Below are positions 263 through 25,327 of a stretch of 27,272 bases of DNA, in pieces. This DNA comes from Candidatus Thorarchaeota archaeon (lineage in GTDB: Archaea; Asgardarchaeota; Thorarchaeia; Thorarchaeales; Thorarchaeaceae). How positions within the stretch are numbered: position 1 is the first letter of the stretch; every line of letters starts with the position of its first letter. The translations under genes were made by a program, and so were the position numbers. The DNA lies in the NCBI GenBank assembly GCA_016839445.1, contig JAEOUG010000054.1:1-27272 (forward strand), read 5' to 3'. The notes under the pieces were generated by a model. That model was not told the DNA's origin. It saw only the letters and a program-made list of their open reading frames with translations, and did not search any database.

Positions 263-3200
263 CTAGTCGAGGTCAATACCTAGGCTGTCAAGCAGCGCAT
301 CAAGGTCAGCCTTGGAGAGGCTCTTCGCCTCTTCAACAATTACCTCAATCTCCTCAGGAGCCATGCCCTTCTTGAGTAGCTTCTCCTTGAGGTCCTGCAG
401 TTCACCAGGTGTCTCCTCGAGACGTAGTTCCTCACGGGCTGGTGCTTCCTTGACAGGTTTCGCCAAGGCATCCGCTCTCCTTGCCTTCTCCTGATCAATG
501 ACCTCCTTGAGGAAGCCAGGCCTCTCACTTGGCCTCATTCTGGCCAGGTCCGTCCTGAATGCCTCAATCTCGGCTTCTCCGAGGCCCGTGATTGACGCAA
601 GCTCCTCGAGGAGCTCGTTCACTTCGGGCACTGTGGTCACGATGGGTTCTGGAGCCACTTCAGCCTCAACCTTGGACAGCTTCAGAGCGTCTAGGTCTTC
701 ATTGACGATGGCCAAGGCAAGTGCCAATCTGGTTGGAGCACTGGCAGGCTTAGGAACTCGACCCTTGGCAAGTGCGCGAATCATGCGATTCAGCTCGCGA
801 ATGCCCTTCGGTACACTCCATACCTTGACGTACGCCAGAAGCAAGAAAGCTATGAGAATCAGACCAGAACCTACTCCGTAGGTAAGAGCCTGCTGGAACT
901 GCTGGCCTGAGCTGACATCCGACTTGATGACAAGCACTCTGAACTGAGTCACGTAGTCCTGCTTCTCAAACGTGATTGTCACGTAGAAGGTTCGACCGAT
1001 GTTGGAGGCTCCTGCCTGGAAGAATATTGTGTAGGTGCCCTCTTCATCAATCGTGAGATCCTCAAAGAACGTGACATTCTGCTGGTCGTAGTCAATTGTG
1101 ATGTTGGCTCCGGAAATCCCTATTTGATGATCGAGGTCGAAGTAGGTGAACGTGAGACTCTCTGACCTCCCCGGTATCGTCTCCACTGTCAGGTTCCCAT
1201 GGATCAGGGTCGTCAGAATGGGCCTGATAGTCAAGTCGAGATGGAGAGGGCCTAGCAGGTACTTAGTTGTGGAGAATATGATGTCAAACGCGTACGTACC
1301 GTAGGGCAGGTCACTGGCCAGCGGCAGGATATAGATGTCACCGACGAGGTCCAACTCAATGCTGCCCAATTGCACCGAGTGGGCCACTCCAATGACATCC
1401 GTGACATTCGAGTTGTCAAGCAGATTCCTGACGAAGTACTCGACCTCGATGATGTCATAGATTGCAGCCGAGTATGTTTCCGGCCCGACGATCTCTGCCG
1501 GTGTCGGGTAGATCTCTATCTTTGCAGTGTACGTCCGAGTTGTGTAGTTGGTGAGGTCGAACCGAACGACTAGGTCGTAGAGCCCTGGAACCTCGACTGT
1601 GAGCACGACCTCAACTGTGTAGTACCCAGATCCAATGTCTGTGACGTAGCCCAGACCGCCTACCCAAGCAGCGAACACATTCGCATTTTCAATTCCCGCG
1701 TCATGCTGGACGTCGTAGTAGTAGAAGGTGTATGTGAGATTGTATCCTGTGTAGTTGCTCTTCGTGACTGTGTCAACAGAAACCTCGGTAGGTATTGGAA
1801 GGATTGTCACGATGATTGACTTCAGTCCAGTGGCGTATCCCGGTTTCTCGGCCCTCAGTCGAAGATAGATTGACTGTGACGCCAGAGAGCTGATGTCAAT
1901 GTCTCCACTGTATGTTCCGTTGCCTTCAGGGTAGAGAGTCCCATTCAGAGACCCGAGAGTGTATCTGACTGTGGCTCCAGTGATGAGTACGCTGTTGTAT
2001 GTGTCGTTGTAGTAGACTAGTATGACCAAGCGATCGCCGAAGTATACCGTGACTATTGTGCTACCATCTGAAAGACGGACTTCAGTCGGGATTGGCACGA
2101 CATTGATGTCGATTGTGTTCTCCAGGAATGCGTGGTTCAATTCGACTGCGCGGATTATCAACGGATATTGACCAATCGCGAATCCCGTCACATCAAGGCT
2201 GCCCTGGTACAGTCCAGGAGTGGCAGTTGGGGTCAGAGCATACACAGAGCCATTCCACTCCATCGTTACAGTGGCACCTGTGACCGGTAGGCTGCGTATT
2301 GTGTCATTCAGATATACGTTGAATACGAGCGTAGTGTCAATCACAACACTATACACAGACTGGCCAGGAAGGATTTGACCGGTGGCCTTGTCAACTACCA
2401 AGGTGAAGGCCTTTGTCCGAGGCTGATAGAACTCCCTGGTGAAGGTGATCTGAGGGGAGAATGTACCGAAGTCGGCATCGGCTGTGTCCAAGAGGAGGCC
2501 ATAGTAGCCACCCACAAGCTCAGTGAAGTTGTAGATGGTGCCGCTCCACAGGAGGGTTGCCTCACCATCTATGACAGGAGTGCCATAGAAGACCTCAATG
2601 GCTTGGAAGGTTATGTTGACAGACTCTCCCCAATCAGCGAAGTACGCTGTCTTGCCCATGATGATTTCAACCGTCGAGGCGCCAGGTTGTACAGACACTG
2701 TCGCAATGGCAGACTGGTAGAAGGTCTTCTCGCTCCAGACATGGAAGGTGTATTTCTGAGAGAGCAATCCTTCGGTAGTGAGGGTTAGTAGATAGACCCC
2801 GTTTCCAACCTCCTCAACTGCGTAGCCGGTTCCTGCAACCAATGTCCAGTCGGTCTCAATCGTTGCACCCTCAAGGAGCAGGTTGTGGTCGAAGTCCTTC
2901 AGGAGCAAGGTGACTTCAATAGGCACACCAATTGCGGTGGAACCCGCAGGAGGTGCTTGAGCAAGCAGAGATGTCTTGACCAGGTTGATTGCCGCTGGAA
3001 CGCCTAGGGTCGTCCTGGATGCATAGAAGGGCGTTCCGCTCCTAGATAGAGTAAGGTCGAAGAACACAAGTCCTGTGTCACCAAACACCGTCGTGTTGAT
3101 GGACACTCGATAGAGACCGCCGCCTAGCAGCTCCAGGGAATAGCCTGAGATGCTGCCGTTCACACTTGTTATGAGGACTGTTGCCCCGTCGATTCCTCCT

Positions 3201-6200
3201 CCAGAGAGGTAGTCGATGTAGCTGAACTCGAGCGTTATGTTGTCGAAGTACGGAGTCTCAGCGACAAGCGGGAACAGAATCTGTGTAGGTCGCTCGACCG
3301 TAGTGGCCTTGGTCACAGTGCTGCGAGGAGCGTAATAGGGGCTTCCACTACTGGCATCAATGGCCAACTGGATCTCATACGCTGAGACCAGTCCCGTCGG
3401 GTTCAAGATGGTTGAACTGAACCGGATCTCGTAGTACGTTGGGTTGTTGATGAGTGTGTAGTCGCCTGAGGCGATGAGGGTGTGTGACGGACCGTGAGTC
3501 AGAGTGATGTGGGACTTGTCTATGGTGATCTTAGTCCCCGTAAGGAAGTCCGTGTATCTGAACCTGAAAACGATCTCTTCCAAGAACGGCGTTTCTCCGG
3601 GAGTCTGTGTGATGAGGATCTGAGTGACCCTCTGGGTGACTCTCGCGATGATGTTTCTCGTTCCACCAAGGTAGAACGGCTCACCGGAGTAGGAGATTGT
3701 CACAGTAAGGCGATACTTCGCAGGCGCTCCTAGCGCGGTGCTGTCGACCTCAATGAGGTAATTGCCCTCGCCCTGATAGCTGACCCAGTAGTTTGAATTC
3801 AACACAAGTGCAAAAGTGCCGTTAGCAGTCACAGTCACTGTGGCACCCGGTATGCCCCGCCCCGTACTATCATCAGTGTAGGATACAACCAGAGATACGT
3901 TGTCGAGATAGGGAGTTGGGTCCGGACTGTCGTATCCAATCTGCGTGCTGCGCTTCAGAACTGAGAAGTCGAAGACCTCCACTCCGTTTGCGAAGGTAGC
4001 ACTTGCATGGACCACAGTGGCAGTAATCGAATAGACTCCATCTGACGCAAAGGCAGTAGTGTTAATCACCACCACGAAGATCCCGTCACCATAGAACTGC
4101 ACGCTGTACTTGTCAGCTGCGATGTTCAGAGTGAGAGTACCAGTCATTCCGAGATTGGTGCCAGCAATCAGGTCTGTGTACAGGAAGGTGATAGTTACAT
4201 TATTGCCCCACTGGCCTGGAGCGAAGCTCGCGTGTGTCAACTGAGTCGCTCGTAGGATGACCGTAACAGTGAACGACCTACTACCCACAGACGCGTAGAA
4301 TGGCGCACCCGTGAATGTCACATTGAGGTGGAGGATGTGCACGCCCACGCTACCCAGACTGCTCGTGTCGATGTACAAGGTGAACACTCGGGTTCCAGAG
4401 TTGTAGGACATGGTGAATGACACGCCAAGATCATTCAGGCTGACAAGCACCTGACCGGAGTTCGGAATCCTTGTCGAGGTCAAGGTGTCAACGTAACTGA
4501 ACGAGAAGACTGCATCCTCACCGTAAGGAGTTGAAGCCACAGGGGAATAGTCGATGTAGGTGGGCCTATCTAGCACAACCAATGTCACGACCATCGTGCG
4601 GTTCTCATAGAGAGGTGATACGCCCTTTTCCCACATGAACCTGAGCTCGAACCTGAAGGTGTCTGTGCTTGGGAAGAGCGAGCTATCAAGCTGGAAGAAG
4701 TAGGTTCCCGGAGTCGTGCCAGACTCATATATGATGAAGTCAGACTGAGTGACTGAGTGCCCTGCATCCAACGGAGTTACTGTGACGAAGACATGATACG
4801 AGTCATTGTCGATGCGTTGGGCACCAATCATATCCCAATAGACCGCACTGAAGACGAATGTGTTCTGATAATACGTCGCCGTTGGGGCCTGCTCAAGATA
4901 CAGGTCTGTGTCCGTACCGGTTATGCGAACCGATGTGTTGATTGTCTGGCTGTAGAACTTGTCCACTGCACCAATCCATTCAATGTCAATCGTTAGGTCC
5001 TTCCAACCTATAGACCCCCATTGAAGTGTTGGGATGCTGATGTTGTAGTGACCTGTTCCAAGCAACGAGTCTGCGCTTGTGTAGATCACCGCGCCCAGCT
5101 CTGAAGTGGATACAGTGACTCTCACTTCGCTGGTACCATTACCAATGCCCACCCTGAGATCTGTGTCCTGGTAGAAGACAAGCACGGTGATTGTGCCACC
5201 ATAGGGTGTCTGAACGATTGGGTCATCAAGGACAAACAGGGTGTTGCGTTTGCGAATCTCCACACCGATGTTGAAAGTGTGATTCTGGTAGTTGAACTTC
5301 TCAATATTGAAGGTCACTGTAATCAGATTCGTACCAGTAAGAGGATCGTCGGACTGAGTGTATATCGTGATGTTGTAGGTCCCTGGGGATAACTCATCTA
5401 CAGTGTAGTTCTTGTCTCCGGACTCGTGGAAGTCAGTCCAGTTACAGGTTATCGAGTAGTTGGAGTTCTGGATAGGAGTCCCATGATCGAAGTCCGTCCA
5501 AGTCAATATGAAGGAAGCAGACTCGCCAAGAGGAATCGAGAGCTCGTTCGAGGTGTAGGAAATGGTGTTGTATATCTCTCGCACATCAACATACATGACA
5601 AGGCTCTGAGGCTCCACAAAGGGTTTCTTCGCCGTAATCTCGATGGGGTACTCTCCAATCGGCATTCCGGCCGTATTCAACTGGAACTGGTAGACGCCAG
5701 AACCGATGGGTGTGAGAGAGAAGGGATTTGCCCAGTCACACGAAATCGTTGCGCCAGTTATCCCTGTTCCATTCACGTTTTGGAATCGAACTCTGAAAGT
5801 CTGAGTGTCTCCGACCGGACCCGATATCCCAGGGTACTGTGGAGATGTCAGTACGGCTGCGTAGTTCACATTGATTGTGAGCGCCGTGCTGGCCGGGTCA
5901 AAGCTGGGGTGAGCCCAGTCTAGATCCATGACATACTGCCCCTTGCCAGGAAGCAAGGATGTGTCGACTACCTTGGTGTACTGCCCATTCCCGCTGTCAT
6001 CGAAGTCTTCGGAACCGAGAACCCAATCAAGAGTCAGAGTTCCTCCGGAGACAAGAACTGAGCTGTCAGTGTCCTCTGCCTCCATGATAATGAGAAGCAA
6101 GTCACCGAAGGTCACATTCGTCGTCAGTGTGGAAACAGCATCGGTCGGATAGACAAGAGCAAGATCAGAGTTGTGTCGGATTCTGAATGGTCTCTTGAAG

Positions 6201-7999
6201 AAACCAACAGAAGTCCAGTCGCCACCAGCACCCACATTGTTGGTGTTTGCCTGAATCATCCATTCACCTGCAGGCGCAGTACCACCAGGGAAACTGATTG
6301 ACGATGTAGTGGCATACCCTGAGCCATCCACCGTTTCAGTGTACGTGTTCCACACGCTACCATCAGGTCTGTAGACGGTGATGTTAACCTCGGAACCGGT
6401 GAAGCCAGGACCGAGATAGACTCGTATCTGAGTTGAATCTTCAGCTCTGAGCTCAACATCTCTCTCCCAGCTATCTCCGTCCCAAAGACGTAGATCCGTA
6501 ATCATGTTAGGAGATGTGCTGAGAAAACGCCAGTATCCATATCTTCCTGCCTCAGTGGCTATCGCGTATGCCGATATGTTGACATAGCCATCACCAGGCG
6601 CCCCACCAGTCCACCCGCTAGTGAGATTGGTTGACGGTGCAAGCGGCTTCGCTACGAAGTAGACATCGCGGTCAAGAGGCAGCGTTTCGTTGAAGAAGTA
6701 GCGATTAACGTAGCCTGTTGGTATGTTTGCCCTAAAGTACGAAGTGAAGTTGGCCGCAGTTCCGTTCAGGATGACAAACTTCTCGCCGTAGGATGTAGGA
6801 CTAATCTCGTACACGCTGCTGATGTCCAGCCGTCGCGCAAATAGGTTGGCTGAAGCGTCGAACTCCACCTTGATGACGGTGTTAGGATTCGGAGTAGAGG
6901 GAGTAGGAGTCCAGGTGAACACGAGATTCACTGGGCTTGTGTCCCATGGTGATGAAGGAACCTGAGTAATCGATGCTTGCCCAGGAGTGGGGCCGTCACT
7001 AACACTCAGACCATTCATCTCTAGATTGATGTCCGTTGGGTCGACAAGTGTCTTCATGAAGAGCTGGAAATTGTCAAACCTCGCCAGAGGACCGATCTCT
7101 GGGGCATATCCCACGACCTGTGTGCTCCAGAGCCCAAGCTCTGCAAGAACTGTGTTGTCTGTGAAGACAGAAGGATTGATAGTGATCAGGCCGGAATTGT
7201 ACCAGGTTTCCTCTGCGTCTATCTGCTCAAACACCTTCTGCCAGACATACTGGGATTCCACACTGAGATATAGACTGAATGACCCTGTCATGCCATAGTG
7301 AGTGTCATCCTGAGTATCAGCCCAGTAGTCCACCGTGAAGCCTGCCCAGACCACCGCACCCCTGTCGATGGTGGCCGTCTGACGTACCCATGCCCTTTCA
7401 TTGTCATAGTAGAACGGGGCACTCGTGCTATCGGAGTTAATCTCAAGCTCGACACAATCGTTTCCAGCACCGTGGCCGTCAGTGCGAATCAGTCCACTTA
7501 CAGTACTGTAGCCAGCATTCGACGTGGGCACAATACTCCAAGGTGATGTGCCACTCTCGAAATCGGGGTTCTGGAACCAAGTCCTGTTCTCAGTCAGCCC
7601 CGTGATTACCACATCAGCTTGATAGGCCTCCCAACCAACTCCCATAGTAACTCCAGCAGTAAAGTCAGTGGTGCCAGATCCTGGGATGTATTCCAGTTCA
7701 CTGTCGGAATAGCTACTCGTGCTGTTACCGAATTCAGAGCCGATCAACGGCGCATTCGTGCCAGACCACTCTGTCCAGCCCTGTTCAGTAAGCACGAACC
7801 GATGGAGTTCTTCGTTCGGGCCAAGCTCGATGAACTCACCGTTGCCGAGGTCTACAAGCCTCACATCCTCTGAATCACCAGATCCGGGGCTGCTCCCGGG
7901 GGTGAGATAATTGGAAACGATGTTTGGCGTGAAGGCCATAGGAAGCAACATGACTGCTGCAAAGAACAGCAGTGCAATCATCTGTCTTCGAGCTTTCAC
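263..7999 (-). CDS. Giant single-pass cell-surface glycoprotein A (2578 aa): signal peptide, head domain, 17 Ig-like repeats, TM, 184-aa cytoplasmic tail
   Basis: The N-terminus MKARRQMIALLFFAAVMLLPMA is a signal peptide. The ectodomain is T/S/Y/G/V-rich with many NxS/T sequons and a recurring ~100-aa motif. TM ALTYGVGSGLILIAFLLLAYVKVW lies at ~818-889, followed by a charged helical tail. The GTG start overlaps the upstream TGA (GTGA), and GGAGG at 8009-8013 is 9 nt upstream. Confidence 0.9.
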   Translation of the reverse strand: MKARRQMIALLFFAAVMLLPMAFTPNIVSNYLTPGSSPGSGDSEDVRLVDLGNGEFIELGPNEELHRFVLTEQGWTEWSGTNAPLIGSEFGNSTSSYSDSELEYIPGSGTTDFTAGVTMGVGWEAYQADVVITGLTENRTWFQNPDFESGTSPWSIVPTSNAGYSTVSGLIRTDGHGAGNDCVELEINSDSTSAPFYYDNERAWVRQTATIDRGAVVWAGFTVDYWADTQDDTHYGMTGSFSLYLSVESQYVWQKVFEQIDAEETWYNSGLITINPSVFTDNTVLAELGLWSTQVVGYAPEIGPLARFDNFQLFMKTLVDPTDINLEMNGLSVSDGPTPGQASITQVPSSPWDTSPVNLVFTWTPTPSTPNPNTVIKVEFDASANLFARRLDISSVYEISPTSYGEKFVILNGTAANFTSYFRANIPTGYVNRYFFNETLPLDRDVYFVAKPLAPSTNLTSGWTGGAPGDGYVNISAYAIATEAGRYGYWRFLSTSPNMITDLRLWDGDSWERDVELRAEDSTQIRVYLGPGFTGSEVNITVYRPDGSVWNTYTETVDGSGYATTSSISFPGGTAPAGEWMIQANTNNVGAGGDWTSVGFFKRPFRIRHNSDLALVYPTDAVSTLTTNVTFGDLLLIIMEAEDTDSSVLVSGGTLTLDWVLGSEDFDDSGNGQYTKVVDTSLLPGKGQYVMDLDWAHPSFDPASTALTINVNYAAVLTSPQYPGISGPVGDTQTFRVRFQNVNGTGITGATISCDWANPFSLTPIGSGVYQFQLNTAGMPIGEYPIEITAKKPFVEPQSLVMYVDVREIYNTISYTSNELSIPLGESASFILTWTDFDHGTPIQNSNYSITCNWTDFHESGDKNYTVDELSPGTYNITIYTQSDDPLTGTNLITVTFNIEKFNYQNHTFNIGVEIRKRNTLFVLDDPIVQTPYGGTITVLVFYQDTDLRVGIGNGTSEVRVTVSTSELGAVIYTSADSLLGTGHYNISIPTLQWGSIGWKDLTIDIEWIGAVDKFYSQTINTSVRITGTDTDLYLEQAPTATYYQNTFVFSAVYWDMIGAQRIDNDSYHVFVTVTPLDAGHSVTQSDFIIYESGTTPGTYFFQLDSSLFPSTDTFRFELRFMWEKGVSPLYENRTMVVTLVVLDRPTYIDYSPVASTPYGEDAVFSFSYVDTLTSTRIPNSGQVLVSLNDLGVSFTMSYNSGTRVFTLYIDTSSLGSVGVHILHLNVTFTGAPFYASVGSRSFTVTVILRATQLTHASFAPGQWGNNVTITFLYTDLIAGTNLGMTGTLTLNIAADKYSVQFYGDGIFVVVINTTAFASDGVYSITATVVHASATFANGVEVFDFSVLKRSTQIGYDSPDPTPYLDNVSLVVSYTDDSTGRGIPGATVTVTANGTFALVLNSNYWVSYQGEGNYLIEVDSTALGAPAKYRLTVTISYSGEPFYLGGTRNIIARVTQRVTQILITQTPGETPFLEEIVFRFRYTDFLTGTKITIDKSHITLTHGPSHTLIASGDYTLINNPTYYEIRFSSTILNPTGLVSAYEIQLAIDASSGSPYYAPRSTVTKATTVERPTQILFPLVAETPYFDNITLEFSYIDYLSGGGIDGATVLITSVNGSISGYSLELLGGGLYRVSINTTVFGDTGLVFFDLTLSRSGTPFYASRTTLGVPAAINLVKTSLLAQAPPAGSTAIGVPIEVTLLLKDFDHNLLLEGATIETDWTLVAGTGYAVEEVGNGVYLLTLTTEGLLSQKYTFHVWSEKTFYQSAIATVSVQPGASTVEIIMGKTAYFADWGESVNITFQAIEVFYGTPVIDGEATLLWSGTIYNFTELVGGYYGLLLDTADADFGTFSPQITFTREFYQPRTKAFTLVVDKATGQILPGQSVYSVVIDTTLVFNVYLNDTIRSLPVTGATVTMEWNGSVYALTPTATPGLYQGSLDVTGFAIGQYPLIIRAVELNHAFLENTIDINVVPIPTEVRLSDGSTIVTVYFGDRLVILVYYNDTYNSVLITGATVRYTLGSLNGTLYPEGNGTYSGDIDISSLASQSIYLRLRAEKPGYATGLKSIIVTILPIPTEVSVDTVTKSNYTGYNLTYTFYYYDVQHDAGIENANVFAAWVGGLGYVTDIGSGYYTVEVVLTVEVPGLYDLVVRFDLTNYTTRTYTAKIEIYPTPAEIVGPETYSAAIYDIIEVEYFVRNLLDNSNVTDVIGVAHSVQLGSIELDLVGDIYILPLASDLPYGTYAFDIIFSTTKYLLGPLHLDLTIRPILTTLIHGNLTVETIPGRSESLTFTYFDLDHQIGISGANITIDYDQQNVTFFEDLTIDEEGTYTIFFQAGASNIGRTFYVTITFEKQDYVTQFRVLVIKSDVSSGQQFQQALTYGVGSGLILIAFLLLAYVKVWSVPKGIRELNRMIRALAKGRVPKPASAPTRLALALAIVNEDLDALKLSKVEAEVAPEPIVTTVPEVNELLEELASITGLGEAEIEAFRTDLARMRPSERPGFLKEVIDQEKARRADALAKPVKEAPAREELRLEETPGELQDLKEKLLKKGMAPEEIEVIVEEAKSLSKADLDALLDSLGIDLD
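920..6180 (-). repeat. 17 degenerate tandem protein repeats (~95-115 aa; beta-sandwich/Ig-like) in protein A
   Basis: Consensus by eye: pyG..v.f.f.Y.D....gI.gA.v...w.....gnG.Y.i.idT..l...g.y.l.i....fy......i.v..r.T. Examples: PYLDNVSLVVSYTDDSTGRGIPGA, PYFDNITLEFSYIDYLSGGGIDGA, YFGDRLVILVYYNDTYNSVLITGA. Boundaries are approximate. Confidence 0.8.
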
Positions 8000-15804: not shown

Positions 15805-15902
15805 ATGGTACACTCCTAAACAGGTATAGTCGTCACTATCCGCTGGACAGACGCAAGAAGGCATCACCACTATATGAATGGATGCTCTGTAAAGCCGACT
15901 CT

Positions 15903-15970: not shown

Positions 15971-18142
15971 TCAGCTTGGATGGACTCTTCGTCTGAGGAC
16001 AATGACCACTCCAGCGAGTGAGAGCACAGATACCGTCACAGCTGCGCCCACAACCAGAGGATTGAGTCCTTCGCCCAAGGGCAGACGTAGCAGCCCACCT
16101 TCCGCCGAGTTCATAGCCCAATCCCAAGCCACAAGCCAGACTGTGGCGGCCTCATCATAGACTACTGGATCTATGACGCAGCTCCAGTTTCCTCCTCCAT
16201 ATTCACAGGGGTACACAAGCGGGGTTGAGTTATCCACCTGAACATAGACTGTGACATTCTCTAATCCAGCAGTATCGTCAGTCACCGTGGCCCAGTATGT
16301 GAAGCTGTCTGTTGATGGACGCGCAGGTATTGTACCCCACCGCTGTATCATTGGGGCCACAGAATCATGTCTTGAGTATATCATGCGCTTACTCCAGTCT
16401 CGAGCCTTGCAGAGCATATCATAGCATTTCAACCAGTCCATCTGATTGTAGGCTTCTCGCGCCAAGTCGAAGCAAGTCAGCGCATTCTGTTCGGCGAGAA
16501 GAGTCTCCTCTCGGTCGGTAGGCTCGACGAAGGTTTGTCTGTACTGGAACTCATCCCAGGTGAGTGCTTCCATCTGGTCCAGAAACGTCCCCTGTACCCA
16601 GTCTTTGTCGAAACTGGAAGTGCCATTGTGGTCAGCGAAGTAACCCATCGGGCCATAACTGAAGTCACCTGTATAGTGCTCATGAACCCATGTGTGTCCG
16701 AAGCCAACTGCGTGCATCGACTCGTGAAGTTGTACTGAAGACACGCCGTTCCTTGGCGTTACGTTGTCAGAACGATAATAGCGCTCCCATGATTTCCAAA
16801 TCACAGTCTGGCCGCCAAACTCGCCATTGTAACCCAGACCAGTGTAGGTGCCGTCTCCGTAGTACATCACCATGTTCTGCTTAATGAAGACAACACCAAA
16901 GACACTGACAAGATCAGGACCTGTAGGGATGCGGTAGGGTCGGACAACTTCATAGATATAGTTGAACATCTCTCCTCCGTCTACTTCAGTGACTCCTTCC
17001 TCGTTTACCGATGCCGAACGCCAGAAGGTGTAGTTCCAAGCGGCATCTTGGTTGATGTCGACGAAGTCCAACTGGACATTCCAGTCAATGAAGGGATAGA
17101 GCTCCTCAAGGTGATGCTGCTGCATCTCCGCATCTGTGACCCAGCGAAGGCTATCTACAGAGATTCCGCTCTCGACATCCATGCAAACCACTGTCACCCG
17201 AAGCTCGCCTGAGGTCACATACTTCGCCGGGCTGTGCTGCACAGGGAACAACAGAAACGAAACTATGTCAAACATGTAATTGCGGAGATACACACTGAGC
17301 TGGTTGACACCGGTGGGTGTTCCAAGATCAACCTCAGCAACCTTGTCCTCGAGATCCTTCGTCCAATGATCGTAGTCAGCCCCTATGTAGTCCTGCCACC
17401 AGATACGAGCCCAACGAAGGTACCACTGATTTGCGGATGGATCCAGAGCGTAGATGTTCCCTCTGCCACCGAATCCTGCGTACTGCATCTCGAGCGGCGG
17501 ATTTAGGTCGTGGTCAAACTCAAGTCGGAACCAGTCCTGCATCATCCCCGTGTCGGGATCCTGTGCCGCATAGTCATACCAGTGTTCTAGCTCATGCCCT
17601 GGAGTATCCATGCTTGAGAAGTTGAGAAGATACAGGTTGTATCCCAAGCTTGGTGGTGCGACACAGGGATGCTCCATGAGCCAGTCTTCAAGAGCAATCC
17701 CGTCAATTGCCCGACCATCGCGCGGATTGAAGACCCTGATGGGAGTGCCTGGGTCCCCTCTCTGAATGGAGAGTGCGCTACTATTGAGCTTGGTGCCAAT
17801 GCCTGTTCCGTTAACCGAATTATCGAGAGCAAACGCCCGAAGGGCTGAGGAGTAGCTCTCGTTTGCGTAGTGAATCTGATAATCGAAGTTGTAAGTTATC
17901 CCGACATCATCTGTCTGGTGTAGGCGAGAAGCGGGCATGGTGTTTAGGAGAGTGTCTTCATTGATGTTGTCGGCATCATAGTCGACGAGAATGACGTTGA
18001 GCGTCCAATCCCTCTCGATATATACCAAATCTTGTGACGGAGCATAGGTAATATCGTGTGACGGCTTTGCCTCCGGCACGGTGCCTAGAGGTAGAGTCGC
18101 AGCTAGGAGAACCAAGACGGCAAAGAGCGCAGCACGAGCCAT
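15971..18142 (-). CDS. Secreted, C-terminally membrane-anchored zinc metalloprotease (metzincin), 723 aa
   Basis: Signal peptide MARAALFAVLVLLAATLPLG. The motif HESMHAVGFGH (16694-16726) fits HExxHxxGxxH, with a Met-turn-like GPMGY shortly after. A short helical bundle and an Ig-like domain (ATVTDDTAGLENVTVYV...AWDWAMNS) follow, then TM PLVVGAAVTVSVLSLAGVVIVL and RRR. Confidence 0.88.
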   Translation of the reverse strand: MARAALFAVLVLLAATLPLGTVPEAKPSHDITYAPSQDLVYIERDWTLNVILVDYDADNINEDTLLNTMPASRLHQTDDVGITYNFDYQIHYANESYSSALRAFALDNSVNGTGIGTKLNSSALSIQRGDPGTPIRVFNPRDGRAIDGIALEDWLMEHPCVAPPSLGYNLYLLNFSSMDTPGHELEHWYDYAAQDPDTGMMQDWFRLEFDHDLNPPLEMQYAGFGGRGNIYALDPSANQWYLRWARIWWQDYIGADYDHWTKDLEDKVAEVDLGTPTGVNQLSVYLRNYMFDIVSFLLFPVQHSPAKYVTSGELRVTVVCMDVESGISVDSLRWVTDAEMQQHHLEELYPFIDWNVQLDFVDINQDAAWNYTFWRSASVNEEGVTEVDGGEMFNYIYEVVRPYRIPTGPDLVSVFGVVFIKQNMVMYYGDGTYTGLGYNGEFGGQTVIWKSWERYYRSDNVTPRNGVSSVQLHESMHAVGFGHTWVHEHYTGDFSYGPMGYFADHNGTSSFDKDWVQGTFLDQMEALTWDEFQYRQTFVEPTDREETLLAEQNALTCFDLAREAYNQMDWLKCYDMLCKARDWSKRMIYSRHDSVAPMIQRWGTIPARPSTDSFTYWATVTDDTAGLENVTVYVQVDNSTPLVYPCEYGGGNWSCVIDPVVYDEAATVWLVAWDWAMNSAEGGLLRLPLGEGLNPLVVGAAVTVSVLSLAGVVIVLRRRVHPS

Positions 18143-18166
18143 AGCCAGAGTAAGAGAGGCCGAGAG

Positions 18167-18235: not shown

Positions 18236-18260
18236 TAGGAGCTATCATCACTGTGGTCAC

Positions 18261-18377: not shown

Positions 18378-18390
18378 ATCTCCTCACGCT

Positions 18391-18417
18391 ATCTCCTCTC
18401 CTCCTTTTTCTTTTTTC
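18391..18417 (+). terminator. Archaeal-type oligo-T terminator candidate
   Basis: Pyrimidine tract ending CCTTTTTCTTTTTTC (T5 at 18405-18409, T6 at 18411-18416). No + strand protein gene lies upstream of it. Confidence 0.5.
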
Positions 18418-18488
18418 ATCTCAATGACTCTGATGCAGGTACTCTTAAATTGCGGTCGCGATTGTCGCCGCCTCTTGGAGAACTACCT

Positions 18489-19928
18489 ATGCCTGCAGCT
18501 AAGAGGCCCTCGCTCAAGGAAGTCCTAGACATCAAATCTGTGGCAATTGTAGGTGTGTCAGCCAAGCTTGGGTACTACTGGGTTCATTCGATGCTCCAGT
18601 GGGACCATGAATTGGATGTGCATCTCGTATCGGTCAAGGGAGGCGAGGTCATGGGTAGAAGAATCTTAGAGTCCCTCGAAGAAGTCCCGGGCTCTATTGA
18701 CTACGCAATCGTCGCGGTCCCGTACAAGTACGTTCCCCAGACATTGAAGGAAGTCAGCATGAAGGGTGCCAAGGGAGCTACGGTCTTCACAAGTGGATTC
18801 TCCGAGCTGGGTACTCCGGATGGTCAGAAGCGTGAAGATGAGCTAAGGCAACTTGTGCAGAGTCTCCCGACTCGGGTTCTGGGGCCCAACTGCATGGGTC
18901 TAATGTACCCGAAACTGGGCTTTGCGTTCATGCCCACCGTGAAGCGGCTACCAGGAAGTGTGGGCTTCGTATCGCAATCAGGCGGCGTCGCAATTGCCAC
19001 CTACACTGCGGGCGTCGAGTCAGGAGTAGGCTTCAGCAAGCTGTTCAGTTTTGGAAACCAAATCGACATCACACCATCGGAGATTCTCGAGTACTTTGCT
19101 GATGACAAAGAAACGAAGGTTGTTGGCGGATACATTGAAGGAACCCGACATGGGAGAGCTATGCTTGATGCCCTCTCGAAGCTTGCTGTCAGGAAACCGG
19201 TAGTTGTGTTGAAGGGCGGACGATCTGAAGAAGGGTCTCGAGCGGTGTCTTCCCATACAGGTGCGCTGTCGGGAAGTCGCCAAATCTGGGATGCAGTCTT
19301 CAAGCAGGCAAACATCCAGGTTGTCACAACCCTTGAAGACCTGGTGGCTACACTGAGCGTGTTCTCACTGAGCCCTCCACCCAAATCGAGAAGGCTAGGA
19401 CTTGTGGCGATCAGCGGCGGCACCAGTGTGATCTACACAGATCTGTGCATCGAGCACGGTCTTGAGGTTCCACGGACGTCGCAAGCAACAATCGACAAAC
19501 TAGATCCTCTCATTCGAGACGTGGGTACGGGTCTAGGCAATCCCATAGACCTGGCAGCGGATTACTACCAAGACCAGACGGTCTCAGAGGTGGTTGACAT
19601 AGTCGGTAACGAGGACAGGTTCGATTCGCTCATTCTAGAGGCCGATGTTCACAACATGCATCAAGTGGCTACCATCATGGGGGCTGCCGACTTTCTGCCA
19701 GATTACTGGAGGGCAATGGCAAGGGCAGGGAAGAAGGTGGCCGACAGACTTGGGAAGCCCGTGCTTGTCTCAGTACCAGAGGTGGCGTATCCAATTCCCA
19801 GGGCTGCCGCGTGGAATGTGTTCATAGAGGAGGGGCTTCCAGTCTTTAGGAACACTCGCGAGGCAGTATCTGCTCTGGCTAGAGTATGTGAATACTACGA
19901 GACAAGGGACAGGCGAGAGGCCAGCTAG
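18489..19928 (+). CDS. Acyl-CoA synthetase (ADP/NDP-forming), alpha subunit (CoA-binding plus two ligase-CoA domains)
   Basis: Motifs SVAIVGVS, IDYAIVAVP, FTSGFSELG, RVLGPNCMG, VSQSGG, SFGNQIDI, LKGGRSEEGSRAVSSHTGALSG (phospho-His at 19254-19256), SGG and NPIDL. Start moved to ATG 18489 (GGAG at 18477-18480; TTAAAT at 18445-18450). There is no ATP-grasp domain. Confidence 0.92.
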   Translation: MPAAKRPSLKEVLDIKSVAIVGVSAKLGYYWVHSMLQWDHELDVHLVSVKGGEVMGRRILESLEEVPGSIDYAIVAVPYKYVPQTLKEVSMKGAKGATVFTSGFSELGTPDGQKREDELRQLVQSLPTRVLGPNCMGLMYPKLGFAFMPTVKRLPGSVGFVSQSGGVAIATYTAGVESGVGFSKLFSFGNQIDITPSEILEYFADDKETKVVGGYIEGTRHGRAMLDALSKLAVRKPVVVLKGGRSEEGSRAVSSHTGALSGSRQIWDAVFKQANIQVVTTLEDLVATLSVFSLSPPPKSRRLGLVAISGGTSVIYTDLCIEHGLEVPRTSQATIDKLDPLIRDVGTGLGNPIDLAADYYQDQTVSEVVDIVGNEDRFDSLILEADVHNMHQVATIMGAADFLPDYWRAMARAGKKVADRLGKPVLVSVPEVAYPIPRAAAWNVFIEEGLPVFRNTREAVSALARVCEYYETRDRREAS

Positions 19929-20542
19929 GCCTTCACAAACCAGTTCACCAGTTGAGCATTGAGGCCGTTCATCTCGAGAAGTGCCTCTAGGTAGTCTCTC
20001 CGCTTGGGCAATAGCCAGACATGCTGCATCTCGAAGTCAAAACCCACTATCTTGATGGCAGACTCTACAGGATTGGGCCTGAAGGCAACATAGCCGAAGA
20101 GCACAGTCAGGCCTAGGAAAATCATGTACGGATACACCCATCCTGCGATAGGTTGCCCAGCCCATACATCACTCCCTGCAAACATGAGCGCGAAGACCGT
20201 TGAGCCGAACATGATTGTCGCCAGACATGTTGCTAATCCACGCATTCGAAGCTCCGCCTCATCTGTGATTTTGTGGTCCTCACACACTTCGACGAGGAAG
20301 GTCTTTTGCTGAGGGCGTTCGCCTGAACTCCTTCCGTGGTACGTGAAGGAAGGATTCCAGCGAGAGCTTAGTAGGTGTTGGCTCCTCGATCCAGTGGTTA
20401 TCTGCATCAGAGCCTTGGCCGGAGCGCCACAGACCGGACAGAATTCGGGGAATCTAAGTCTGCTGATCTTCACGCGGACAATTGGCCTATCAGAGTATCT
20501 CCTTCGTCTGGACAATAGTCTGTCACTACCGTTGCTTGGCAT
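19925..20542 (-). CDS. Hypothetical membrane protein with a putative Cys3His zinc site and two TM helices (205 aa)
   Basis: FPEFCPVCG ... VCEDH; hydrophobic segments GLATCLATIMFGSTVFALMFAG and WVYPYMIFLGLTVLFGYVAF. ATG start; the stop overlaps the convergent synthetase stop. Confidence 0.8.
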   Translation of the reverse strand: MPSNGSDRLLSRRRRYSDRPIVRVKISRLRFPEFCPVCGAPAKALMQITTGSRSQHLLSSRWNPSFTYHGRSSGERPQQKTFLVEVCEDHKITDEAELRMRGLATCLATIMFGSTVFALMFAGSDVWAGQPIAGWVYPYMIFLGLTVLFGYVAFRPNPVESAIKIVGFDFEMQHVWLLPKRRDYLEALLEMNGLNAQLVNWFVKA

Positions 20543-20579
20543 CTCTAAACCGCATAAATAGGTCTGTCGAACAAGGAAA

Positions 20580-21725
20580 TCAGAAGCGTAGTAGTGGGTG
20601 TGTTGTGTCGTAGTGACCTAGTGCGAGATGGTTGATGTGTTCCTGCAGACTGCGTGATGCAAGAACAGGGCTGGTTGGTCTGATGGAACGGTCCTCTGTT
20701 GTGGCAAGCTCAAACCCCAGGTCAGAGAAGCAAGTCCTGATGCGTTCCAGTCCCTGCAGGTCGGTCCGGAGACCTAGGCCCAAAGCGGATAGAATCTGAG
20801 AACCGTAATGAGTGCTCCAGAGCCCCCTCAGATAGACTCGACTCGCACGAAGTGGAACTCTTAGCTCGTCTATCTCTCTTTTCCTCTGTTCGACCAAGGC
20901 AGGTATAAGACGAGAGGCCCCGGTCCTCCTCATCAGCTCAGTGTCCAAGAAGAGAGTAGATCCACCTCTCGATATCTGCTTCTCAAGAAGTTCGAGCGCA
21001 CGTTCATGGATTGTGTTGATGGCCTCAGCGTAGCTCATGTGGCTACTTGTACCCTCGAGAAGATCTTGCGGGTTACCATCATAGCCGCTTAGCTCCCCCA
21101 GACCGAGACCTACCATCATCCCGCGCTGCGCCGAGAACCAGTCGTCCCGGGATACTCGCACAAGAACTGACTCAATGCGAGATCTTGTCATGTGCCATTT
21201 CTCAGCTGCGAAGGACTCGTACCCCATCCAGATGATGACTGGAAAGCCACTCCACCGTACGCGGTCCGTTCTCATCAGATAGATCTTCTCCTCAATCTGC
21301 TTTCTGGTCAGCAACCATATGAGAATCGCATCCGCTGTAACGACAACCGAAGAATCCAGATACAGCAAGGCTCTACCAAGGACAGGAGTGATATCTAGGT
21401 GTCTGAGTGTCTTGTTGAATGACAGGTCGATCTGCTGCAGTCTAGAGTTGCCAGCAAGAGGCCACAGATCTAATGATTCGAGCCTGTTCTCACGGGCGAT
21501 AATCGATTCTAGCTCTGAGCATGTGCTCAGAGGATTCAGGTCAACGGTCCCTAGTGCATTGCGTGAGAGGTCCAGAATGGTGAGGTTCTTACAGTGAACT
21601 AGGTCCGAGAGGTCTACCTCTTTGGCGTGCATGTTCCTGAAGCGAATCTCAGTTGCATCAGCCGGATACTCAGGCGCTTCCTGACGGCCGAAGTCCCCGT
21701 CATGCTTTATTCGAATCGAATTCAT
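20580..21725 (-). CDS. Cytoplasmic leucine-rich-repeat protein (~381 aa) with a helical C-terminal domain
   Basis: About four 22-23-aa LRRs: EVDLSDLVHCKNLTILDLSRNAL / GTVDLNPLSTCSELESIIARENRL / ESLDLWPLAGNSRLQQIDLSFNKTL / RHLDITPV. Start moved to ATG 21725 (MNSIRIK) because the longer ORF overlaps the upstream gene. No signal peptide or TM. Confidence 0.85.
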   Translation of the reverse strand: MNSIRIKHDGDFGRQEAPEYPADATEIRFRNMHAKEVDLSDLVHCKNLTILDLSRNALGTVDLNPLSTCSELESIIARENRLESLDLWPLAGNSRLQQIDLSFNKTLRHLDITPVLGRALLYLDSSVVVTADAILIWLLTRKQIEEKIYLMRTDRVRWSGFPVIIWMGYESFAAEKWHMTRSRIESVLVRVSRDDWFSAQRGMMVGLGLGELSGYDGNPQDLLEGTSSHMSYAEAINTIHERALELLEKQISRGGSTLFLDTELMRRTGASRLIPALVEQRKREIDELRVPLRASRVYLRGLWSTHYGSQILSALGLGLRTDLQGLERIRTCFSDLGFELATTEDRSIRPTSPVLASRSLQEHINHLALGHYDTTHPLLRF

Positions 21726-21787
21726 CTCTCTGCCCTGACCTGCACGGGCAATGAGCCTTTGGACTTCAATGTTTGCCTGAATCTCGC

Positions 21788-24700
21788 CTAGCCTTCCAGT
21801 GGGGGTAGACCGCCCGTAACAGGAATCAGATGTCCCTTTGTCACAGCATCCAAGACACAACGGTAGGCTCTCAGCTCTGTGTAGCCCAGAAGCACGACAG
21901 ATCGCACAATCTGCTCTGGTGACAATCCGTGGTCAATCTCCGTTGACGCGAATGCGTCCATCACCGGCCTCAAGTGGTCTGGTATCGTCTTCTTGACGCC
22001 CACATATTTGTCGAGCAGAGCGCCATCGAAGTAACTCTCAAAGAGTGGGTCAAGCACGTTTCTGACCGATTCAGACACTTCAGGGGTCAGACCGGTCGGC
22101 CTTGCGATGTGCTCATCCGAGTCGTATAGGCCACCGACTGCCCGCGCGAAATCCTCAAGGTTCTCTTTGAGCCTCTGTGAAGCTGGGTCAACTGTGATAA
22201 TAGCAAAGATGAGTTGCTCTGACTGGACGGCTGTGATGGCTTCCGTTATGGGAATGGCAGTCCATATTGGCTCGCTCATGGAGAATTCATCCCGGAAGTG
22301 GGATATGGCAGATATGAACGAACCCAGCATTGATTCCTGGAAGACTCCCTTGAGCACCTTGGAGTATACTGACAGTCCTGTGAGCCTCTGAATCGTGAGG
22401 AATCCAAGTAGGTTCTTCACATCGTCGAACCTAGATTTGAGCCCAATAAGCTCAAGGTTCCTTCGAGCCATCACTGACATGTAGTATCGACGGCCGTAGG
22501 TGAGCCCAACACCCACCAGCAAGAGAGCCAGACCTCCAAGGAAACCGGCTCTGAAGGCAATGGCATACAAGGAGCCAGCGTCTGGTACAGTCAACTGGAT
22601 GCTACAGACAGCCGCATCATAGAACGGTATCGTGATGCTGATCTCTATCTCATACTCGCCTGCTGCAAGATCTGAGACGTTGAAGGCGGCCTCCCACCAG
22701 CTTCGAGCAAGGTTAGGACTGAAGGAAACGATTTGCGACGAGAGATTCCCAATGACTGCTGCGCCAGCCAGAATGGCATAGCCGTTATCCTGGTCGTAAA
22801 GGTGGACAGCGGCAGTGAACTCCTCCTCGTCGTCGATGCTCACGCTCGGGGTATGAGGGAAGGCAGTTATCCCATGGTGTACTTCGAAGGCCTGAAGCCC
22901 ATAGGCAACCTCTGTTCCGTTCCTCCAGAATACGACCGAGGCCCACTGACCGATAGAGGCGTTGACTGGGCCGAGAGTCAGGGGCGTTGTGAAGGCCAGG
23001 CTAGAATTGACGACTGAGATGTTCTCTGAGCTCCAAACGGAGCCCGTTGGTTCAAGGATCTCGAAGTATACATCGTTGACTTGACCGACAGTCTGGCTTG
23101 CTGTGCCTATGGTAGCAGAACACCGAAGACGACTATTGCTCCTGAAAACATAAGCTGAAACCCAATGCGAGCTCTCCGGAGGCCAGTCTTCCGTGCTGAC
23201 TTCATATGCGTAGTTGGGAGATTGGCACTCGAATGTCCACCATCCAGCCGACCCAACAAGCCCTGAGGGCACGTGGACACAGCCAACACATGGAATGCAG
23301 GCCTGAGTCACGTCGCTCCCTAGGGGATCCATTACTGCCTCCAGAACCCAGTCGGTCGGATGGATAATCGATAGAGAGAGATCCTCAGCTTCGGCATATG
23401 ATTCGACATAGTAGCACCAAGTGACCGTTGACGGCTCGTTGACTTCTACAGTGAATGATGTCCCTTGTGTTTCGGAACTTGCGGTTGGGGAAGAGCTACC
23501 AAATCGACTCATCCGCGTGACAGCTGCAGAGAACTCGAATGATACCGTAGTATTGGCGGTCACAGTGACTGGAATAGAAACAAGGGTCCAGTAGGTGTAG
23601 TTCAGCACTACGCTCCCTTGACCCTCGTGTCCTGCAAACTCGACGCTCCCAGAGAAGGAGTTGGAGGCACTCAGATCCACACTCTCGAAGGTCGGTGCGT
23701 CTTGCGCTACGAGCGAAACATCATCCAGAAGGAAGGTCAGGTACTGCCCGTTTGTGGCATCGCCATCGAGATCCGGGTCGTCAATAGGAATCTGGATGTA
23801 GCCACCCGGTGTGTCAATCTTGAGAGACACTCTCAGTTCGAACACCGTGGGGCATGAAGGAATGCTGAGCTGAGTAGGACCCAGAGCTAGCCATTCTCCA
23901 CGGCCTGTTATGTTTGTAGGATCAATGCTCCAGGACCAGAGCTCAGTAGAGCCGTTTAGGACTTCGACCGTGAAGTCAAAGAGGCCAGCGAAGTTCTCAC
24001 CTATCGGACCATGCAGATACTGGTAGCCAAGGTCAAGAATGAAGTCCTCGTTGTGTTCATAGTTCTGAATCGTCTGATACCAGTATACTCTCGTACCGTT
24101 ATAGTGCCTGAAACCGTCTGGTGTGGTCACCTCATAACCTTCATTCTCGATAGTAACGTAGCCGTCATCTGCCAGAGAATACGATGTCCGCTGTCTTCCC
24201 AAGCCAGAGATGATCTCGCGACGCGCGGCCCATCCATACGGAGCATACACTCCATCACCATACCAATCCACATTCGTTCCGGGATTCCCGTCTTCGAAAG
24301 AACCATTGAGAGCAATCAGGCGTTTCAGGTTTCGAACCGTGACTGTGACTTCACTCCCACGCCAGCCAAGGGGGCCTCTGAACACATCGAAGCTGTAAGT
24401 GTAACCTCCGGAAGCGTGGAGATCTTCGTCACCCGCCGTGTCTGTGAGGTCCTCTTCGAATTCGTAGTAGTGACTCAGGTATGGCTCCGTCCCGGCGAGG
24501 ACGGCAAGATAATCGCTTCTGATTTCATCCAAGTTCCTCTCTACGGACCAGAACCTAAACTCATCGACGCGTCCGACTACGAAGGAACTTGTTCTCGCTG
24601 CGGAGTTCATGATGTTGTTCTCTGTGTGTCGTCCGATGGTAGAGGTGTACCAGCTAGTAGACGCCGCATCTACCACAGGAAGGGTTTCTTCGTCGCCCCA

Positions 24701-25327
24701 GACGATAGTCAGGTCATTAGAGGTCTCATTCCAAGTAATCGCGATGAAGTACCAATGGTGAGGAACCCAGTCGTTCTTGTTCCCTGTGAGAGAGCCGTCC
24801 CCACCCCAATCCAGAACTAGGCGTCCTAGCTGCCATCGCGTCTCGAAGTCTTGATCCTGTCCCCAGAATCGCCCTGTCGCAGCTTCCTCTGTCCACATCA
24901 GCCAGAGGGATATGGTTCCCGCCACGCCGCTGAAATCTGCGCTCCCACCCTCTCCTACGAGGAAGTAGTCACCCGAACATTCAGCCGATCTTAGATTCCC
25001 AGGAGCACCTGCCGGCAACCATACTTCACCGGTAGGGTATGGGTTGACGTCCGTGCGTGCGTGGGTGTACAGAGTGGGCTCTGAAGGTACTGCCCTCTCC
25101 TCTACAACGACAGGGTCCAAGATTCCTGAGTAAGGCTGTAGATAGTCCTGGGCCGGACCATACGCAAAATCAGAGGAGGATGACGAGAGTGTTATCCTAG
25201 GCAGCACGACGGGACCAGTGTAGGCGGGAAGCGGTAGACATGCTAGAACCATACATGCGAGAAGTGTGACGGTTGGCCCGCAATGCCGCAATGTTTCTTG
25301 ACTCCCACTCTGGTTGTATGCAACCAT
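21788..25327 (-). CDS. Receptor-like single-pass membrane protein C (1179 aa): LamG/ConA-like domain, head homologous to proteins A/B, one Ig-like repeat, TM, cytoplasmic longin-like plus winged-helix-like domains
   Basis: LamG-like motifs GTISLWLMW, WYFIAITWN, GRVDEFRFWSVERNLDEI and HYYEFEEDLTDTAG. TM FRAGFLGGLALLLVGVGLTYG at ~22492-22556. The tail LLGFLTIQRLTGLSVYSK..ESMLGSFISAISHFRDEF matches the Asgard longin-like pattern. The start codon is uncertain (25327 or 25252). Confidence 0.82.
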   Translation of the reverse strand: MVAYNQSGSQETLRHCGPTVTLLACMVLACLPLPAYTGPVVLPRITLSSSSSDFAYGPAQDYLQPYSGILDPVVVEERAVPSEPTLYTHARTDVNPYPTGEVWLPAGAPGNLRSAECSGDYFLVGEGGSADFSGVAGTISLWLMWTEEAATGRFWGQDQDFETRWQLGRLVLDWGGDGSLTGNKNDWVPHHWYFIAITWNETSNDLTIVWGDEETLPVVDAASTSWYTSTIGRHTENNIMNSAARTSSFVVGRVDEFRFWSVERNLDEIRSDYLAVLAGTEPYLSHYYEFEEDLTDTAGDEDLHASGGYTYSFDVFRGPLGWRGSEVTVTVRNLKRLIALNGSFEDGNPGTNVDWYGDGVYAPYGWAARREIISGLGRQRTSYSLADDGYVTIENEGYEVTTPDGFRHYNGTRVYWYQTIQNYEHNEDFILDLGYQYLHGPIGENFAGLFDFTVEVLNGSTELWSWSIDPTNITGRGEWLALGPTQLSIPSCPTVFELRVSLKIDTPGGYIQIPIDDPDLDGDATNGQYLTFLLDDVSLVAQDAPTFESVDLSASNSFSGSVEFAGHEGQGSVVLNYTYWTLVSIPVTVTANTTVSFEFSAAVTRMSRFGSSSPTASSETQGTSFTVEVNEPSTVTWCYYVESYAEAEDLSLSIIHPTDWVLEAVMDPLGSDVTQACIPCVGCVHVPSGLVGSAGWWTFECQSPNYAYEVSTEDWPPESSHWVSAYVFRSNSRLRCSATIGTASQTVGQVNDVYFEILEPTGSVWSSENISVVNSSLAFTTPLTLGPVNASIGQWASVVFWRNGTEVAYGLQAFEVHHGITAFPHTPSVSIDDEEEFTAAVHLYDQDNGYAILAGAAVIGNLSSQIVSFSPNLARSWWEAAFNVSDLAAGEYEIEISITIPFYDAAVCSIQLTVPDAGSLYAIAFRAGFLGGLALLLVGVGLTYGRRYYMSVMARRNLELIGLKSRFDDVKNLLGFLTIQRLTGLSVYSKVLKGVFQESMLGSFISAISHFRDEFSMSEPIWTAIPITEAITAVQSEQLIFAIITVDPASQRLKENLEDFARAVGGLYDSDEHIARPTGLTPEVSESVRNVLDPLFESYFDGALLDKYVGVKKTIPDHLRPVMDAFASTEIDHGLSPEQIVRSVVLLGYTELRAYRCVLDAVTKGHLIPVTGGLPPLEG

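Follow-up and report, generated by a model that had tools for sequence, protein, structure and literature searches.

The window analyzed here is a 27,272-nucleotide contig of a Candidatus Thorarchaeota archaeon (JAEOUG010000054.1 of GenBank assembly GCA_016839445.1), which carries a block of surface-protein genes. The sequence is present in marine-sediment habitats. Two adjacent genes encode giant paralogs, designated giantA and giantB, and a third encodes a shorter homolog, the short paralog. The three proteins combine a homologous head with immunoglobulin (Ig)-like repeats and one C-terminal transmembrane (TM) helix, and they end in a conserved cytoplasmic tail of one of two types, tail-1 in the giants and tail-2 in the short paralog. 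The block also contains genes for a membrane-anchored putative zinc metallopeptidase (the HExxH protein), a leucine-rich repeat (LRR) protein and a small CxxC membrane protein (Table 1). A previous sequence-only reading of this DNA had taken these six genes for a surface receptor or adhesion system, and all of the open reading frames (ORFs) that it reported were recovered at their positions. Its description of the genes as lying on the minus strand holds for all six, but an unrelated ligase gene on the plus strand lies inside the same span.

Table 1. Genes and features of the window (positions in nucleotides of the contig)
Feature	Position	Strand	Remarks
giantA	263-7999	minus	2578-amino-acid ORF, type-I surface glycoprotein
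giantA head	6140-7999	minus	residues 1-620
giantA stalk	about 920-6139	minus	17 Ig-like repeats
giantA TM helix	833-889	minus	
giantA tail-1	266-832	minus	cytoplasmic
giantB	7996-15870	minus	2624-amino-acid ORF, giantA paralog; probable start M23 = 15804
giantB head	about 13918-15804	minus	
giantB stalk	about 8626-13917	minus	17 repeats
giantB TM helix	about 8545-8625	minus	
giantB tail-1	7999-8541	minus	
HExxH protein	15971-18142	minus	723 amino acids, membrane-anchored putative zinc metallopeptidase
HESMHAVGFGH motif	16694-16726	minus	in HExxH protein
HExxH protein TM helix	15998-16054	minus	followed by 7-amino-acid tail
LRR protein	ORF 20580-21860, gene 20580-21725	minus	likely start M46 = 21725, 381 amino acids
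Short paralog	21788-25327	minus	1179 amino acids, type-I surface protein
Short paralog LamG/ConA-like domain	24521-24940	minus	sub-threshold, 22 bits against 27.6
Short paralog head	about 22868-24367	minus	homologous to the giants' head
Short paralog Ig-like repeat	22631-22822	minus	one repeat, residues 836-899; weak, domain E 0.0028
Short paralog TM helix	22493-22564	minus	
Short paralog tail-2	21791-22492	minus	cytoplasmic
Longin-like N-terminal domain of tail-2	22151-22450	minus	predicted from profile links; no direct Pfam match
C-terminal subdomain of tail-2	21791-22102	minus	about 100 amino acids, conserved in family
CxxC membrane protein	19925-20542	minus	205 amino acids, CxxC...C..H motif, two predicted TM helices
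Acetate-CoA ligase alpha-type gene	18450-19928	plus	Succ_CoA_lig E 5e-46, TIGR02717 E 4e-92
Pyridoxal phosphate (PLP)-dependent enzyme gene	25458-26939		493 amino acids, beyond short paralog

In a Kyte-Doolittle scan, giantA, giantB, the short paralog, and the HExxH protein each showed a hydrophobic stretch at the N-terminus and one TM helix toward the C-terminus, with basic residues behind the helix. The cytoplasmic ends behind the helix comprise approximately 189, 181, and 234 amino acids in giantA, giantB, and the short paralog, respectively, and 7 amino acids in the HExxH protein. N-x-S/T sequons are enriched in the ectodomains: giantA has 42 (shuffle mean 21.8), giantB 45 (21.9), the short paralog 13 (6.4), and the HExxH protein 10 (4.0); the tails contain none. 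The excess of sequons outside and their absence from the tails fit glycosylated ectodomains with cytoplasmic tails. The type-I topology proposed earlier for the three paralogs is thus borne out by the hydropathy scan and by the sequon distribution.

GiantA and giantB are colinear over their full length with 32% identity. Iterated searches with a repeat hidden Markov model (HMM) delimited 17 units of about 100-110 amino acids in giantB and 16 in giantA, in which one unit-sized gap is left at 2150-2271. Repeat i of giantA best matches repeat i of giantB at 12 of 17 positions, and the mean score is 92 on the diagonal versus 41.9 off the diagonal. Such position-matched repeats indicate that the array is older than the duplication that gave rise to the two genes. 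In paralogs encoded on contig C23 of the same genome, the membrane-proximal region gave matches to the Big_1, Filamin, YtkA, MG4, and CarboxypepD_reg models, which points to Ig-like beta-sandwiches as the fold of the repeats. GiantA orthologs are 2552-2600 amino acids long in the listed set of the same length, and 20 aligned giantA proteins (2564-2588 amino acids) required only 2633 alignment columns, so the length is nearly fixed. One ortholog of each giant was seen in most genomes. In the genomes G001 (G001:C2:58875-67475) and G013 (G013:C26:68108-76729), giantB is about 2900 amino acids long and has an insert in the head, and homologs of this length carry NHL/six-bladed beta-propeller Pfam domains. 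In both of these genomes, the protease gene is also missing beside the giants.

The giants matched no Pfam or NCBIfam family at threshold, and the heads of the giants and of the short paralog matched no Pfam family even at relaxed E values. Sequence and profile searches of the PDB with giantA, the short paralog, the protease, and tail-2 matched no solved structure, the sequence search with the giants being extended to an E value of 1. The surface proteins thus fall into no already characterized family by Pfam and NCBIfam thresholds and PDB sequence searches, in agreement with the sequence-only reading, which knew of no named system of this kind. In the ESM Atlas, the homologues P0013 and P0173 retrieved only unnamed Thorarchaeota clusters; a TrmB-bearing cluster at 0.76 can be taken only as a lead.

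The short paralog begins with a signal peptide followed by the LamG/ConA-like domain, for which no other relative was found in its own genome. By BLAST, only about 250 amino acids of the protein aligned with giantB (E 7e-11). When a profile of the short-paralog family (14 members of 1111-1261 amino acids) was compared with the giantA head, hhalign returned 99.9% with an E value of 2.8e-33 over 662 columns. The earlier claim of three homologous membrane proteins with a shared head is therefore well founded. The same is true of the stalk lengths of 17, 17, and 1 repeats: giantA has 16 repeats and the unit-sized gap, giantB has 17, and the short paralog has one weak repeat.

Tail-1 is the best-conserved part of the giants. 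Identity of the giantA tail is 67-77% in the 23 best same-genus matches, and that of the head is 56-61% in nine genomes and 43-45% in seven others. Across 19 aligned giantA orthologs, mean conservation was 0.67 for the tail, 0.53-0.60 for the head, and 0.58 for the stalk, and it rose to 0.73 and 0.76 in two helical blocks of tail-1. Tail-1 is acidic and helical by composition, and it stands at the end of 2-7 proteins per genome, with open frames of up to 6555 amino acids. It was present in all of the 24 same-genus genomes and in G025, a genome of a sister family in the same order, which are also the genomes used for gene order below; in 15 of 15 genomes of other families, it was not found at an E value of 1e-5. 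Tail-1 had no Pfam match, and its HMM detected no clear soluble relative in its own genome, where two small ORFs appeared at an E value of about 0.004. An internal duplication within tail-1 was considered and was not supported (13.6% over 19 columns).

Tail-2 defines a small family, with 126 clusters at an E value of 0.001 among 1.84 billion representatives, and it is mostly C-terminal in proteins of 1000-2300 amino acids. Each same-genus genome gave 3-11 matches to the short paralog, with head and tail pieces counted separately, and its own genome encodes three tail-2 proteins. Conservation of the tails among orthologs, on which the sequence-only reading had made its proposal depend, was found for both tail types and extends to paralogs. 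An HMM of the N-terminal 120 residues of tail-2 identified 10 further proteins in the same genome at E < 0.004, nine of which have soluble-type architectures. In several of these relatives the domain forms the N-terminus by itself and is followed by a TrmB-type winged helix, and in one it comes after TPR repeats. Another, the 650-amino-acid protein L035 (G000:C140:997-2949), has an Arf/Roc GTPase domain at residues 122-255 and a tail-2-N-like domain at 361-478, a fusion that hints that this domain class works with small GTPases.

The relationship of tail-2 to longin domains was approached by profile comparison. Tail-2 aligned with nine of its own-genome relatives with an hhalign value of 98.15% (E 6e-14, 97 columns). 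With 26.2 bits, one relative passes the cut-off of 26.1 for Pfam Fuz_longin_1, and it matches Intu_longin_1 as well; a second gave an E value of 0.0014. Precomputed annotation places PF19036 in 68 of 120 listed orthologs of the threshold-reaching relative, and tail-2 aligned with the orthogroup of this relative at 89% (E 2e-6) over 87 columns that cover the Pfam-matched region. Because the profile link runs through Asgard proteins that carry a Fuz/MON1-type longin domain of Pfam, the longin tail proposed earlier is supported indirectly; it stands as a transitive link and not as a direct match to a longin model of Pfam. With this basis in profile comparison, we consider the N-terminal domain of tail-2 likely to be longin-like. 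The Pfam Longin model PF13774 had no match in the genome, and it was likewise silent in control genomes, so that this search was uninformative.

Two further observations concern the distribution of this domain. A surface protein of 1522 amino acids encoded in the same genome, L032 (G000:C35:1802-6370), carries a divergent tail-2 N-domain at residues 1213-1269 (E 2e-4), which suggests that the phmmer counts underestimate the variety of proteins that bear the longin-like tail. In addition, the adjacent genes L030 and L034 (G000:C114:6094-8360) encode soluble proteins with a longin-like domain and a TrmB-type winged helix, and one of the two proteins reaches the Pfam threshold for Fuz_longin_1.

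The LRR protein consists of about four leucine-rich repeats and a conserved C-terminal domain of about 250 amino acids, which matched no Pfam family even at relaxed E values. Its scores on LRR_4 (26.9 bits) and LRR_8 (24.4 bits) lie below the cut-off of 27 for each, and it matches over several repeat stretches the protein C71 of the same genome (whole-protein E 1.1e-48), which itself reaches 135 bits on LRR_8. Repeats and C-terminal domain are both kept in 17 orthologs with 40-44% identity. The assignment of this protein to the cytoplasm agrees with our analysis, as it lacks a hydrophobic N-terminus, a signal peptide, and a TM helix.

The HExxH protein has a signal peptide, a large ectodomain, a C-terminal beta-sandwich-like module, and a TM helix, with the catalytic motif outside. 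His473, Glu474, His477, Gly480, and His483 of the HExxHxxGxxH motif are invariant in 25 of 25 aligned homologs. A candidate Met-turn, PMGY, lies 16 residues past the third His, with Met499 conserved in 22 and Tyr501 in all 25 of the homologs; we take this Met-x-Tyr to resemble the Met-turn of astacin and serralysin. No Pfam or NCBIfam family was reached at cut-off. The sub-threshold Pfam matches among the 25 members were exclusively to metzincin families, namely, M66, M10, and astacin in four members each, M11 in three, reprolysin_3 in two, and M54 in one. Comparison with nine Asgard M54 proteins gave an hhalign value of 77%, though over only 26 columns round the motif, and controls gave at most 0.2%. 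All named homologs are annotated as "hypothetical protein". The motif is common to this protein and to the metzincins (astacin, matrixin, M66, and archaemetzincin M54), from which it differs by large flanking domains without known relatives. Of the marks of a metzincin, the designation that the sequence-only reading had used, the protein shows the invariant motif and a candidate Met-turn but reaches no family threshold, and it is best regarded as a motif-level metzincin candidate of no described family. The last approximately 140 residues, which comprise the module and the TM helix (15998-16400), also occur C-terminally in at least seven further proteins from this genome, encoded on contigs C111, C98, C147, C164, C26, and C188, and look like a shared membrane-anchor cassette.

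The spacing of the genes distinguishes two pairs. The giantB stop overlaps by 4 nucleotides (7996-7999) the first possible start of giantA, a GTG codon; if a later Met is taken as the start, as in the gene callers' P0257 (2572 amino acids), a gap of about 14 nucleotides separates the two genes. In relatives, about 11-165 nucleotides lie between the giantB tail match and the giantA head match. The overlap or short gap, being kept in relatives, suggests co-transcription and perhaps coupled translation. The LRR gene starts 62 nucleotides downstream of the short paralog stop.

The giants are adjacent in 16 of the 24 same-genus genomes, as well as in G025; in the remaining genomes contig ends interrupt the region, and no counter-example was seen. 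The protease gene flanks giantB in 13 of the 24 genomes, the LRR gene flanks the short paralog gene in 14, and the five genes occur in the window order on one contig in seven (G003, G006, G009, G011, G014, G015, and G019). G001 and G013 keep the giant, ligase, 205-amino-acid protein, LRR, and short-paralog genes together without the protease gene, whose ortholog lies inside another contig in G001; in G013, which is 92% complete, no protease ortholog was found with the window query. In G025 the protease gene is 6 kb away from the adjacent giants, with GAPDH, MFS, and ABC ATPase genes and an unknown gene in between. No LRR/short-paralog pair was found in the 18 kb that were read around the giants of this genome; the short paralog gave a single weak match there (E 1.4e-10), and nothing like it lies within these 18 kb. 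In both G009 and G001, the ligase gene, whose product is 63-64% identical, and the gene of the 205-amino-acid protein occupy the same positions as in the window; the PLP enzyme gene adjoins the short paralog gene in G001 and G003, and the flanks in G003 include tRNA synthetase and lipid genes beyond giantA, as well as PPDK. Since the block is passed on as a unit that includes housekeeping genes, gene neighborhood within the genus speaks only weakly for function; tightly spaced pairs on the same strand are the exception. Linkage in related genomes had been named as a check of the earlier proposal; the genes are indeed linked, but the linkage extends equally to the ligase, the PLP enzyme, and the tRNA synthetase, so it does not single out a system. 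In our reading of the sequence data, the genes would constitute two pairs, not one proven machine.

On balance, we favor the view that the locus encodes a modular family of tailed surface glycoproteins of Thorarchaeota, in which a shared head, an Ig-like stalk, and one TM helix are combined with one of two alternative conserved tails. The first pair, giantA and giantB, are ancient tandem paralogs with length-matched 17-domain stalks and homologous helical tails, and would be expressed from one transcript. Most likely, these two proteins would work jointly as long, glycosylated rods in the cell envelope, with their tails docked to a cytoplasmic partner; the matched stalks of fixed length and the overlapping or abutting genes fit such a joint assembly. 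In the second pair, the short paralog would combine a lectin-like head on the cell exterior with a longin-like domain in the cytoplasm, and it would most likely serve as a platform, tethered to the membrane, for a small GTPase or for proteins that regulate it, as suggested by the fusion of a soluble relative of the longin-like domain to an Arf/Roc-type GTPase. The adjoining LRR protein may be an adaptor. The anchored HExxHxxGxxH protein would most simply be an extracellular peptidase of a peptide-using lineage that lies beside the giants by chance. Its position is what suggests a sheddase role, which is speculation, and a peptidase for nutrition or maturation is no less likely.

Several results weigh against this interpretation. 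None of 34 tail-2 members matched a longin family of Pfam directly at an E value of 1, and the tail of the short paralog matched no Pfam family at an E value of 10. The link to longin runs via a borderline Pfam score, and the 120 orthologs that support it are close kin. Roadblock (PF03259) homology of the tail-2 N-domain was rejected after comparison with 10 own-genome roadblock proteins (hhalign 6%, 37 columns), and a winged helix in the C-terminal subdomain was not supported (0.2% against the winged helix-turn-helix of the soluble relatives). LRR paralogs were not beside the other tail-2 proteins on the contigs listed. Furthermore, the equal conservation of unrelated genes in the same block limits what adjacency alone can say about function.

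The giants might instead be canopy-and-pillar proteins of a surface layer (S-layer), with tails that serve only for anchoring or assembly and with the other genes as unrelated neighbors. The model for such an arrangement is PySLP, the colossal S-layer protein of Pyrobaculum arsenaticum (bioRxiv 10.64898/2026.08.21.746120). According to the preprint, PySLP (292 kDa) contains 19 Ig-like domains, with a lattice region toward the N-terminus, an Ig pillar, and a TM helix toward the C-terminus. It is near the giants in size and layout, both being archaeal type-I proteins of about 290 kDa with an N-terminal head, a long Ig-like pillar, and a single C-terminal TM helix. The near-invariant length and the fixed 17-domain stalk would suit a lattice spacer better than a variable adhesin, and the single ortholog of each giant seen in most genomes and the heavy sequon load point in the same direction. 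However, PySLP as described there is encoded by one gene and, like its homologs, has a short basic end, whereas the giants form a paralog pair with an acidic, helical tail of about 185 amino acids that is their best-conserved part and is common to giants of 2000-6500 amino acids. The comparison with PySLP covered size and layout, and no sequence relationship to it was found. Moreover, cultured Lokiarchaeia are reported to have complex protruding surface proteins and no ordered S-layer (PMC9834061, PMC12993045), and the giants have no sequence match to any solved S-layer protein. We regard an S-layer function as less likely than the view favored here, but as a strong rival to it. A stronger version of the signaling idea, which we consider unlikely, would make these proteins receptors that couple outside to inside: engagement of the lectin-like head would lead the longin-like tail to recruit or regulate an Arf/Rag/Rab-like GTPase, the LRR protein serving as adaptor, and the tails of the giants would tie rods of 60-70 nm to cytoskeleton or membrane-remodeling proteins. 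If true, this would represent a prokaryotic forerunner of receptor-to-small-GTPase signaling.

The sequence-only reading united the six genes in one transmembrane adhesion and signaling assembly. On this view, shedding or maturation of the receptors would fall to the metallopeptidase, and the LRR protein would bind to a tail. The retention of five genes in the same order in 7 of 24 genomes, with consistent pieces elsewhere, speaks for it, as do the frequent position of the protease gene beside giantB (13 of 24) and the membrane anchor and outward catalytic motif of its product. Against these stand the protease gene on another contig in G001 and the failure to find one in G013, the four unrelated genes that split it from the giants in G025, where the LRR/short-paralog pair was not found nearby, the unrelated metabolic gene on the opposite strand inside the block, and the equally conserved housekeeping flanks. 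The homologous tailed paralogs and the linkage of the genes are supported, but the linkage singles out no one system, and we find a single assembly improbable. Still more remote is the idea that the tandem giants are cargo of an "aloposon"-type mobile element, for which the precedent is a giant pair of Heimdallarchaeum tied to a transposon by Wu et al. (2022; PMC8813620). We found no tRNA gene in the window and an even base composition along it (GC 0.507-0.534), and no MinD/ParA-type gene occurs among the genes scanned; the giants here have only about 2600 amino acids. Throughout the same-genus genomes searched, the genes retain their order, and in G003 they occupy the same chromosomal place with tRNA synthetase, lipid, PPDK, and PLP enzyme genes as flanks. 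Membership in this class, which is characterized by integration at a tRNA site and an upstream MinD/ParA set, was accordingly rejected on the missing tRNA gene and the housekeeping flanks.

The family of tailed surface glycoproteins that we favor can be set beside several known systems. Adjacent, mutually homologous giant genes have been noted in Thorarchaeota (Wu et al., 2022; PMC8813620); the proteins in that study exceed 3000 amino acids, and the accessible part of the article gives no topology, tails, or function for them, whereas the pair in the window belongs to a stable chromosomal block. Asgard roadblock and longin proteins are described as GTPase platforms (PMC10933270), and the word "transmembrane" is absent from that article. 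The tail-2 N-domain is profile-linked to Asgard carriers of Fuz_longin_1 and in this respect resembles longin/roadblock platforms (Mon1-Ccz1/Fuzzy-type, MglB, and Ragulator), but it differs from those covered there by its place behind a TM helix, on the cytoplasmic side of a large surface glycoprotein. The resemblance to integrins and cadherins with their sheddases is one of layout alone (an extended glycosylated ectodomain, a single TM helix, and a conserved tail) and is an analogy, as the sequence-only reading also held; Pfam, NCBIfam, and PDB sequence searches found no homology to eukaryotic adhesion-receptor families. A literature search over the main texts of a limited collection of papers found no description of this layout or of these tails. 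The locus thus offers concrete candidates for protruding surface proteins in Thorarchaeota. In it, a single family of homologous ectodomains is joined to two distinct conserved cytoplasmic modules, and one of these modules probably falls in the longin-like class, which is reported to form small-GTPase platforms (PMC10933270). Should the tails prove to bind proteins in the cytoplasm, recombinant tail domains would offer a way to test for a link from the cell surface to the GTPase/trafficking-like proteins of Asgard archaea.

The remaining genes of the window show a few minor features. For the 205-amino-acid protein, the zinc site proposed by the sequence-only reading comes down to one CxxC and one C..H. 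The acetate-CoA ligase alpha-type gene is the sole gene of opposite strand amid the surface-protein block, and no beta-subunit gene was found in the window. The PLP-dependent enzyme is distantly similar to cysteine synthase (cysK E 2e-21, far under the cut-off) and is much longer than a typical CysK.

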